The notes under the pieces are model-generated. The model saw only the letters and a program-made list of their open reading frames with translations. It ran no database searches and was not told the origin of the DNA. The translations under genes and the position numbers were made by a program. DNA of 64,000 nucleotides from Escherichia coli (lineage in GTDB: Bacteria; Pseudomonadota; Gammaproteobacteria; Enterobacterales; Enterobacteriaceae), in the NCBI RefSeq assembly GCF_044324785.1, contig NZ_CP172127.1; one strand, given 5' to 3'. Below, piece by piece: positions 29,249 through 30,446 of the stretch (position 1 is its first letter; each line of letters begins with the position of its first letter).

Positions 29249-30013
29249 ATGAAATTGAATATCCGCGCGCAAACTGCACAAAACCAGCACAATAATTCTC
29301 CCATCGTTCTTGTCCATGGTCTGTTTGGTAGCCTCGACAACCTTGGCGTACTGGCTCGCGATCTGGTAAACGATCACAATATCATCCAGGTTGATATGCG
29401 TAACCACGGTCTTTCACCGAGAGATCCGGTAATGAATTACCCGGCGATGGCGCAGGATCTTGTTGATACCCTGGATGCACTGCAGATCGATAAAGCAACA
29501 TTTATCGGTCACTCCATGGGCGGTAAAGCGGTAATGGCACTTACTGCACTGGCCCCCGATCGCATCGATAAACTGGTGGCGATCGATATCGCACCGGTCG
29601 ACTATCACGTACGCCGGCATGATGAGATTTTCGCGGCCATCAACGCAGTCAGTGAATCGGACGCACAAACTCGCCAGCAAGCAGCAGCAATAATGCGCCA
29701 GCATCTTAATGAAGAAGGGGTGATTCAGTTTCTGCTGAAATCTTTTGTTGACGGGGAGTGGCGCTTTAACGTGCCGGTATTGTGGGATCAGTATCCGCAT
29801 ATTGTGGGGTGGGAGAAAATCCCGGCATGGGATCACCCTGCCCTGTTTATCCCTGGCGGCAATTCTCCATATGTTAGCGAGCAGTACCGTGATGATTTAC
29901 TGGCACAATTTCCACAGGCACGGGCGCATGTGATTGCAGGCGCAGGTCACTGGGTCCATGCTGAAAAACCGGATGCGGTATTACGCGCTATCCGTCGCTA
30001 TCTCAATGATTAA
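29249..30013 (+). CDS. ybfF: Alpha/beta-hydrolase esterase YbfF
   Basis: 254-aa ORF with GHSMGG nucleophile elbow; divergent from seqA. Confidence 0.9.
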   Translation: MKLNIRAQTAQNQHNNSPIVLVHGLFGSLDNLGVLARDLVNDHNIIQVDMRNHGLSPRDPVMNYPAMAQDLVDTLDALQIDKATFIGHSMGGKAVMALTALAPDRIDKLVAIDIAPVDYHVRRHDEIFAAINAVSESDAQTRQQAAAIMRQHLNEEGVIQFLLKSFVDGEWRFNVPVLWDQYPHIVGWEKIPAWDHPALFIPGGNSPYVSEQYRDDLLAQFPQARAHVIAGAGHWVHAEKPDAVLRAIRRYLND

Positions 30014-30018
30014 CGCAA

Positions 30019-30034
30019 CTGATTAAAAACCCAG
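30019..30034 (+). promoter_or_regulatory. Candidate LexA box upstream of ybfE
   Basis: CTGATTAAAAACCCAG fits CTG-N10-CAG spacing of SOS boxes; ybfE is reported as LexA-regulated; weak match. Confidence 0.3.
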
Positions 30035-30152
30035 CGTCCGCGTCGCTTTCCGCGCGTGGGCGTTGGCGTGACTCATCGCGCTGATGTATTATGGCGCGCT
30101 ATCCATCCGGGCAGAGGCCTGGCTGATTGTTTCCCCCGAAGTCACCAAGATC

Positions 30153-30446
30153 ATGGCCAAAGAACAAACGGACCGTACGACATTAGATCTGTTCGCGCAC
30201 GAGCGTCGACCGGGACGACCGAAAACTAATCCGCTTTCGCGCGATGAACAGCTGCGTATTAATAAACGCAACCAGCTAAAACGCGACAAAGTACGTGGCC
30301 TTAAGCGTGTCGAACTGAAGCTGAACGCGGAAGCTGTCGAGGCGCTAAACGAGCTGGCGGAATCGCGCAATATGAGCCGTAGCGAACTGATCGAAGAGAT
30401 GTTAATGCAGCAACTGGCGGCGCTGCGTAGTCAGGGCATCGTTTAA
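30153..30446 (+). CDS. ybfE: Small basic protein YbfE (CopG/RHH-like C-terminus)
   Basis: Start [10 protein letters not shown] within ORF 30084..30446; 97 aa. Confidence 0.75.

Follow-up and report, generated by a model that had tools for sequence, protein, structure and literature searches.

The 16-mer CTGATTAAAAACCCAG in the ybfF-ybfE spacer of the Escherichia coli chromosome is, judged from its letters, a genuine LexA-type dyad with low predicted affinity. It is an exact reading of positions 30019-30034 of the window, by which we mean the whole stretch of 64,000 nucleotides that was analysed, and it is already known as the published LexA (SOS) box of ybfE, so that nothing is new in its designation. 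The explanation that we favour, with modest confidence, is a low-affinity and recently arisen LexA site that lies too far upstream for strong repression, the damage response of ybfE being mainly LexA-independent. The name 'LexA regulated protein', which has been propagated to YbfE orthologues across the Enterobacteriaceae, rests on this weak and oddly placed box, and it calls for caution, because the box exists in few genera only and its effect was unseen in recent lexA3 RNA-seq. What we add here is evidence from related species that the 'LexA regulated' label does not carry over to most orthologues, together with a description of the conserved elements flanking the box. The coordinates of the features are collected in Table 1.

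Table 1. Features of the ybfF-ybfE region, with positions in the window
Feature	Position	Strand	Basis or remark
ybfF (esterase) CDS	29249..30013	+	ORF list and RefSeq annotation of matching genomes
LexA box as scored, 20 bp, AACTGATTAAAAACCCAGCG	30017..30036	.	heterology index 10.82
ybfE LexA/SOS box, 16-bp core CTGATTAAAAACCCAG	30019..30034	.	sequence; identical string in PMC2585105
TGA in the left half-site	30020..30022	+	in frame with ybfF, three codons past the E. coli TAA
GC-rich hairpin, stem 30035-30042 with 30055-30062	30035..30062	+	between box and -35; fold and pair counts
ybfE sigma-70 promoter: -35 TTGGCG 30063-30068, 18-bp spacer, -10 TATTAT 30087-30092	30063..30092	+	consensus scan
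GC-rich discriminator GGCGCGC after the -10	30093-30099	+	nearly invariant in relatives
Leader hairpin CCGGGCAGAGGCCTGG, then CTGATTGTTTCCCCC	30107..30122	+	predicted ybfE leader; terminator-like match
ybfE CDS, 97 aa, ribbon-helix-helix, named 'LexA regulated protein'	30153..30446	+	NCBIfam, Pfam, K-12 annotation

Gene context

The TAA stop codon of ybfF is located 5 bp before the 16-mer, and the spacer, which ends at the ybfE ATG at 30153, is 139 bp long; fldA and fur are found further downstream. YbfE was assigned to NCBIfam NF008671 'LexA regulated protein' with an E-value of 2e-50, and Pfam RHH_1 was also matched. A 751-bp stretch around the box was matched in 5424 of 5426 complete E. coli genomes, the annotation of the matching genomes giving the ybfF esterase, 'ybfE: LexA regulated protein' and fldA, and a 38-mer around the box was identical in 5209 of 5421 complete E. 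coli genomes. Because positions 29990-30160 are identical to K-12 MG1655, the literature on the K-12 region around ybfE is directly applicable here. According to this literature, ybfE comes first in a ybfE-fldA-uof-fur transcript and is off in stationary phase (PMC4161252).

Database entries for YbfE often have 117-136 aa, being read from upstream start codons such as the ATG at 30084, and this longer start (30084-30152) would run over the -10 hexamer. Since the conservation of the protein starts only at MAKEQTD (30153) and the indels in the upstream DNA alignment are not multiples of three, the 97-aa YbfE is the credible form.

Sequence and score of the box

The CTG/CAG dyad with the exact 10-bp spacing, which is the trinucleotide hallmark of LexA boxes of the E. 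coli/Gammaproteobacteria type, is present in CTGATTAAAAACCCAG. Of the ten spacer bases counted from the sequence, four match TATATATATA and eight are A or T; the sequence-only reading was therefore correct in describing a CTG-N10-CAG frame with a poor internal match. For scoring, we used a heterology-index (HI) matrix in the Berg-von Hippel form, as in the SOS literature, with 18 published LexA boxes (PMC3009722); a lower HI is better, and the usual limit for LexA boxes is about 15. The 20-mer AACTGATTAAAAACCCAGCG is below this limit and falls inside the range of the 18 known boxes, whose leave-one-out HI is 0.6-12.8, and its HI is the lowest among all 20-mers on either strand of the whole window. 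The sequence-only reading had named a sub-threshold score together with a better upstream site as grounds for abandoning the assignment; matrix scoring gave an HI of 10.82, under the usual limit of 15, and no better LexA site was found elsewhere upstream of ybfE in the HI scan of 29700-30200, the runner-up with HI 16.6 being within ybfF.

The score by itself is not significant at the scale of the window. Markov-1 simulations gave 0.45 sites this good per 64 kb, with at least one such site in 36% of the simulations, and about 30 such sites per genome are expected by chance. The box is notable only because of its place in the 139-bp spacer that leads up to ybfE, where about 0.001 sites this good are expected, and this argument is post hoc. 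The CTG-N10-CAG frame alone is no evidence for a LexA site: the window has 31 such frames versus 13 expected from dinucleotide shuffles, and 31 was reached in 0 of 100 shuffles. The likely cause of this excess is that CTG and CAG are very common codons in coding sequence.

The half-sites of the box are of unequal quality, the right one (CCCAG) being acceptable and like those of uvrD and lexA, and the left one (CTGAT) being poor. According to Culyba et al., binding is favoured when operator residue 15 is A or C and not G or T; the ybfE box has C at this residue in the right half-site and T in the left. Five other 20-mers of the window have an HI of 11.1-12.3 (12217-12236, 58986-59005, 8427-8446, 60962-60981 and 9728-9747); each is without an intact CTG or CAG, as in AATTGTATTTCAAACCAATA, and these are probably AT-rich chance matches.

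Promoter and position of the box

The TTGGCG-18-TATTAT element was the sole sigma-70-like site found on the + strand of the spacer by consensus scan, and the same hexamers had been assigned to ybfE by SELEX with RpoD holoenzyme (PMC3946193). The promoter is unusually well conserved: among 35 Enterobacteriaceae sequences covering genera and species, TTGGCG does not vary at all, and the -10 hexamer and the discriminator hardly vary. The -10 variants across relatives read TAT(G/T)AT, followed by the nearly invariant discriminator GGCGCGCT. GC-rich discriminators typically mark promoters under growth-rate or stringent control. The GC-rich discriminator found here fits the shut-off of ybfE in stationary phase (PMC4161252).

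From these hexamers, transcription is predicted to start near 30099. The end of the box is 29 bp from the -35 hexamer, which places the box at about -80 to -65 from the predicted start. A LexA operator is expected to overlap or abut the promoter hexamers or the transcription start of its gene; on the + strand, neither the consensus scan nor inspection by eye revealed a promoter that overlaps the box, and a second promoter nearer the box than the predicted start may be present. In a study of Salmonella, the boxes of LexA-dependent genes overlapped the start site, and distant boxes with high HI went with LexA-independent behaviour. Two other candidate elements in this region were examined and rejected: the A-tract as an UP element, since its position of about -76 to -70 is beyond the range of -40 to -60 in which such elements are usually found, and AATGATTAAC as a Fur box, since it has about 10 matches of 19 by eye and its sequence is Escherichia-specific.

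Hairpins flanking the box

The GC-rich hairpin on the downstream side of the box gave -32.2 kcal/mol in a single-sequence fold of the + strand, with a z-score of -2.7. RNAalifold reported no consensus structure for the 45-sequence alignment, and the hairpin was then tested by explicit pair counts. In the 45 sequences, 83.6% of the cells were paired, well above the slid controls, and double changes were found in 37 cells versus 17.9 in shuffles, a number matched by 0 of 500 shuffles. Compensatory changes are visible in the two stem arms, which read CGTCCGCG/CGTGGGCG in E. coli, CGACCGCG/CGCGGTCG in Kluyvera and CGACTGGAAG/CTTCCAGTCG in Enterobacter. This GC-rich stem-loop with compensatory changes, 22 bp past the ybfF stop, is like an intrinsic terminator of ybfF; it differs in that TTGGCGTG follows the stem, without a U-tract, and in that the A-tract is on the 5' side. 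We rejected the hairpin as a rho-independent terminator of ybfF because no U-tract follows and the terminator scan did not report it. An intrinsic terminator on the minus strand, in which the hairpin is followed by TTTTTAATCA, was also rejected, since its fold is no better than that of shuffles (z -0.6) and no converging gene is found. The hairpin may be a stabiliser of the 3' end of ybfF mRNA.

A second hairpin lies in the predicted leader of ybfE; each of the 55 distinct orthologous leaders that we folded shows a hairpin in this position, although the stem sequences differ. The z-scores of its single-sequence folds are not significant (mean -0.6), and what speaks for it is its conserved position with changed stems. 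The region could act as an attenuator or could bind a protein or an RNA. The motif TTGTTT(C)CCC is conserved in the same leader (30107-30137).

The motif CTGAT occurs three times in the control region of ybfE, at 30019-30024 in the box (CTGATT), at 30081-30086 before the -10 hexamer (CTGATG) and at 30123-30128 after the leader hairpin (CTGATT), with spacings of 62 and 42 bp. It is pure speculation that these repeats are autoregulatory sites of YbfE, which is a ribbon-helix-helix DNA-binding protein.

Conservation of the box in related species

We scanned one genome per species, amounting to 80 of 342 ybfE loci of the Enterobacteriaceae, and looked at the site that corresponds to the box, some 135 bp upstream of the ATG. 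Both CTG and CAG are kept in only 17 of the 80 loci, which belong to Escherichia, most Citrobacter and Yokenella, and the retention looked for in a LexA box was thus not found. The 20-mer is identical in the three Escherichia species, and most Citrobacter have CTGATTAAAAACTCAG with HI 13.5. The corresponding site in Salmonella is CTGATTAAAAACTCAT with HI 17.1, and a contig of Salmonella subsp. enterica confirmed the ending CTCAT, in which CAG is changed to CAT and the box is broken. At the orthologous position, Klebsiella and Raoultella have CTGGCTAAAAACTGCC, Kluyvera GTGATTAAAAATGCAT, Pluralibacter GTGATTAAAAACCGAG and Enterobacter TTGATTAAAAAGCCAG. When we searched among the 80 loci for a replacement site with HI below 14 upstream of ybfE in the genera without the CTG/CAG pair, none was found except in Atlantibacter, which has a CTC...CAG variant of HI 12.0 without the CTG trinucleotide. 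Salmonella has, by contrast, kept the boxes of dinG, uvrD and dinB, which are weak boxes in E. coli.

When 45 sequences were aligned without gaps, the box showed no variation at TG, AAAA and the terminal C and almost none at the adjacent T and G; variation in the region is greatest in the five bases from which CAG is formed. The TG is invariant because it is part of the TGA stop codon of ybfF, the TGA at 30020-30022 being the actual ybfF stop in 53 of the 80 loci and being preceded in E. coli, three codons earlier, by a newer TAA, and the terminal CG of the 20-mer is conserved because it is the foot of the conserved hairpin. Although the flanks vary, no change of the box is seen in any of the three Escherichia species or in most Citrobacter, and this could reflect some selective constraint. 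As judged from 30011-30022, YbfF of Escherichia apparently lacks three C-terminal residues that are present, for example, in its Citrobacter sedlakii counterpart.

Published assignment and expression data

The identical CTGATTAAAAACCCAG is given as the ybfE LexA site, with a literature citation, in PMC2585105. A 2024 PNAS paper takes an HI of 11 from Courcelle et al. 2001 for the ybfE box and speaks of a 'predicted (weak) LexA box', and reviews and later studies include ybfE in lists of LexA-regulated genes after Fernandez de Henestrosa 2000 and Courcelle 2001. These lists and the product name support the statement of the sequence-only reading that ybfE has been reported as LexA-regulated, and its suggestion that the site is the ybfE operator, possibly a low-affinity one, agrees with the published assignment (HI 11 published and 10.82 here). 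We regard 'low-affinity' as the right emphasis, and control of ybfE by this box in vivo is doubtful in view of the position, the lack of conservation and the lexA3-independent induction.

The published expression data disagree on LexA control of ybfE. As for the lexA3-independent induction, the 2024 PNAS RNA-seq found that AZT induces ybfE 4-fold with a lexA3 dependence of 0.74, that is, none, and that the induction is 2.9-fold dependent on SspA. A ybfE promoter-GFP reporter responds to UV according to Culyba et al., who found ybfE atypical in kinetics among 14 SOS promoter reporters and left it out of their analysis. Ciprofloxacin did not induce ybfE in K-12 or EHEC, and the mutagen MX did not induce it in Salmonella. 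Nalidixic acid induces ybfE in Salmonella although the study could find no SOS box there, in agreement with the broken box (CAT) of the contig described above. The expression of ybfE has also been reported to cluster with cold-shock genes, not with SOS genes.

Explanations for the box

Under the favoured explanation, a LexA dimer would occupy the box weakly and briefly in undamaged cells and would leave it upon the LexA self-cleavage triggered by RecA*. The box is situated some 30 bp before the -35 hexamer, not over the promoter or the predicted start. Because the box is upstream of the promoter hexamers, its occupancy should hinder RNA polymerase only slightly, and the bulk of the DNA-damage response of ybfE would come from LexA-independent inputs. 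We infer both weak binding and a small regulatory effect of the box; its sequence, score, position relative to the hexamers and conservation pattern are results of this analysis, and its designation as a LexA target and the expression data come from the literature. The box also looks evolutionarily young: it would have originated from the ancestral ybfF stop TGA, the conserved A-tract and the foot of the conserved hairpin, with the five variable bases reading C(C/T)CAG by chance only in Escherichia, most Citrobacter and Yokenella.

We consider it rather doubtful that the box is a fully functional SOS operator, at which LexA represses ybfE, and with it the ybfE-fldA-uof-fur transcript, to a meaningful degree until LexA cleavage lifts the repression. 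Such an operator could block upstream contacts of the polymerase, could stop read-through transcription from ybfF in the manner of a roadblock, or could act on an unmapped promoter closer to the box. In favour of this are the inclusion of ybfE in the LexA-regulated lists that go back to Fernandez de Henestrosa 2000 and Courcelle 2001 and the UV response of the promoter-GFP fusion; the HI is under 15 and better than that of polB (13 in the table of the 2024 PNAS paper and 12.6 by leave-one-out), and the box is invariant in Escherichia and nearly all Citrobacter. It is difficult, however, to reconcile a functional operator with AZT induction that is unchanged in lexA3 in RNA-seq, with the lack of induction by ciprofloxacin or, in Salmonella, by MX, and with a box located some 30 bp before the -35 hexamer, whereas the boxes of LexA-dependent genes overlap the start site. 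The CTG/CAG pair has been lost in most genera with no replacement of HI below 14 among the loci scanned, Atlantibacter excepted, whereas even the weak boxes of dinG, uvrD and dinB have been kept in Salmonella.

The opposite explanation, that the match is due to chance, appears unlikely to us. The dyad would then be a by-product of the ybfF stop TGA, the A-tract and the hairpin foot, LexA would not occupy it in vivo, and the literature label would rest on the score and on a DNA-damage induction having other causes. The frequency of such sites in random sequence (0.45 per 64 kb, about 30 per genome) is compatible with this, as are the explanation of the invariant TG by the ybfF stop and of the terminal CG by the hairpin foot, the variability of the five bases supplying CAG, the highest in the region, the lexA3-independent induction, the co-clustering with cold-shock rather than SOS genes and the atypical kinetics of ybfE among the SOS reporters. 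Against chance, the best LexA-like 20-mer of 64 kb is found exactly in the promoter-proximal spacer, and both invariant trinucleotides are present in it. The original study of Fernandez de Henestrosa and coworkers in 2000 is said to have added ybfE to the LexA regulon and to have confirmed its LexA-dependent expression with Northern evidence, which counts against a chance match and would mean a stronger LexA effect than our favoured explanation of a marginal site proposes. The A after CTG has a parallel too, since the symE/yjiW box also has A at this place (PMC2585105).

The low-affinity, recently arisen site that we favour can be carried one step further, to a newborn operator, and we offer this extension, including a related possibility of LexA-independent control, tentatively and as rather improbable. 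The TGA, the A-tract and the hairpin foot may have given 15 of the 20 positions, and a few substitutions in Escherichia and Citrobacter may have completed the dyad. If the operator is indeed young, the ybfE-fldA-uof-fur transcript would have been weakly recruited into the SOS regulon, and the box would be a small and tidy example of a regulon gaining a member from pre-existing sequence. The related possibility is that the conserved elements around the box, namely TGATTAAAA, the two covarying hairpins, the invariant -35 hexamer and the GC-rich discriminator, constitute an undescribed LexA-independent control region of the operon, which might include autoregulation by the ribbon-helix-helix protein YbfE.

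Comparison with known LexA boxes

The ybfE box shares the CTG-N10-CAG frame and the AT-rich spacer with the typical E. coli LexA box, whose consensus is TACTGTATATATATACAGTA, and it is the same sequence, with no difference, as the published ybfE box (Fernandez de Henestrosa 2000; Courcelle 2001). Unlike typical LexA boxes, it is at a long distance upstream from the promoter hexamers, has A and not T after CTG, and is not conserved beyond Escherichia, Citrobacter and Yokenella. The score does not set it apart from the weak E. coli boxes of polB, dinG, dinB, ftsK and uvrD, which have a leave-one-out HI of 11.4-12.8 versus 10.8 for ybfE. The differences are found in conservation and expression: while the ybfE box is broken in Salmonella and ybfE is not lexA3-dependent, dinG, uvrD and dinB have kept a recognisable box in Salmonella and show LexA-dependent expression in the 2024 PNAS paper.
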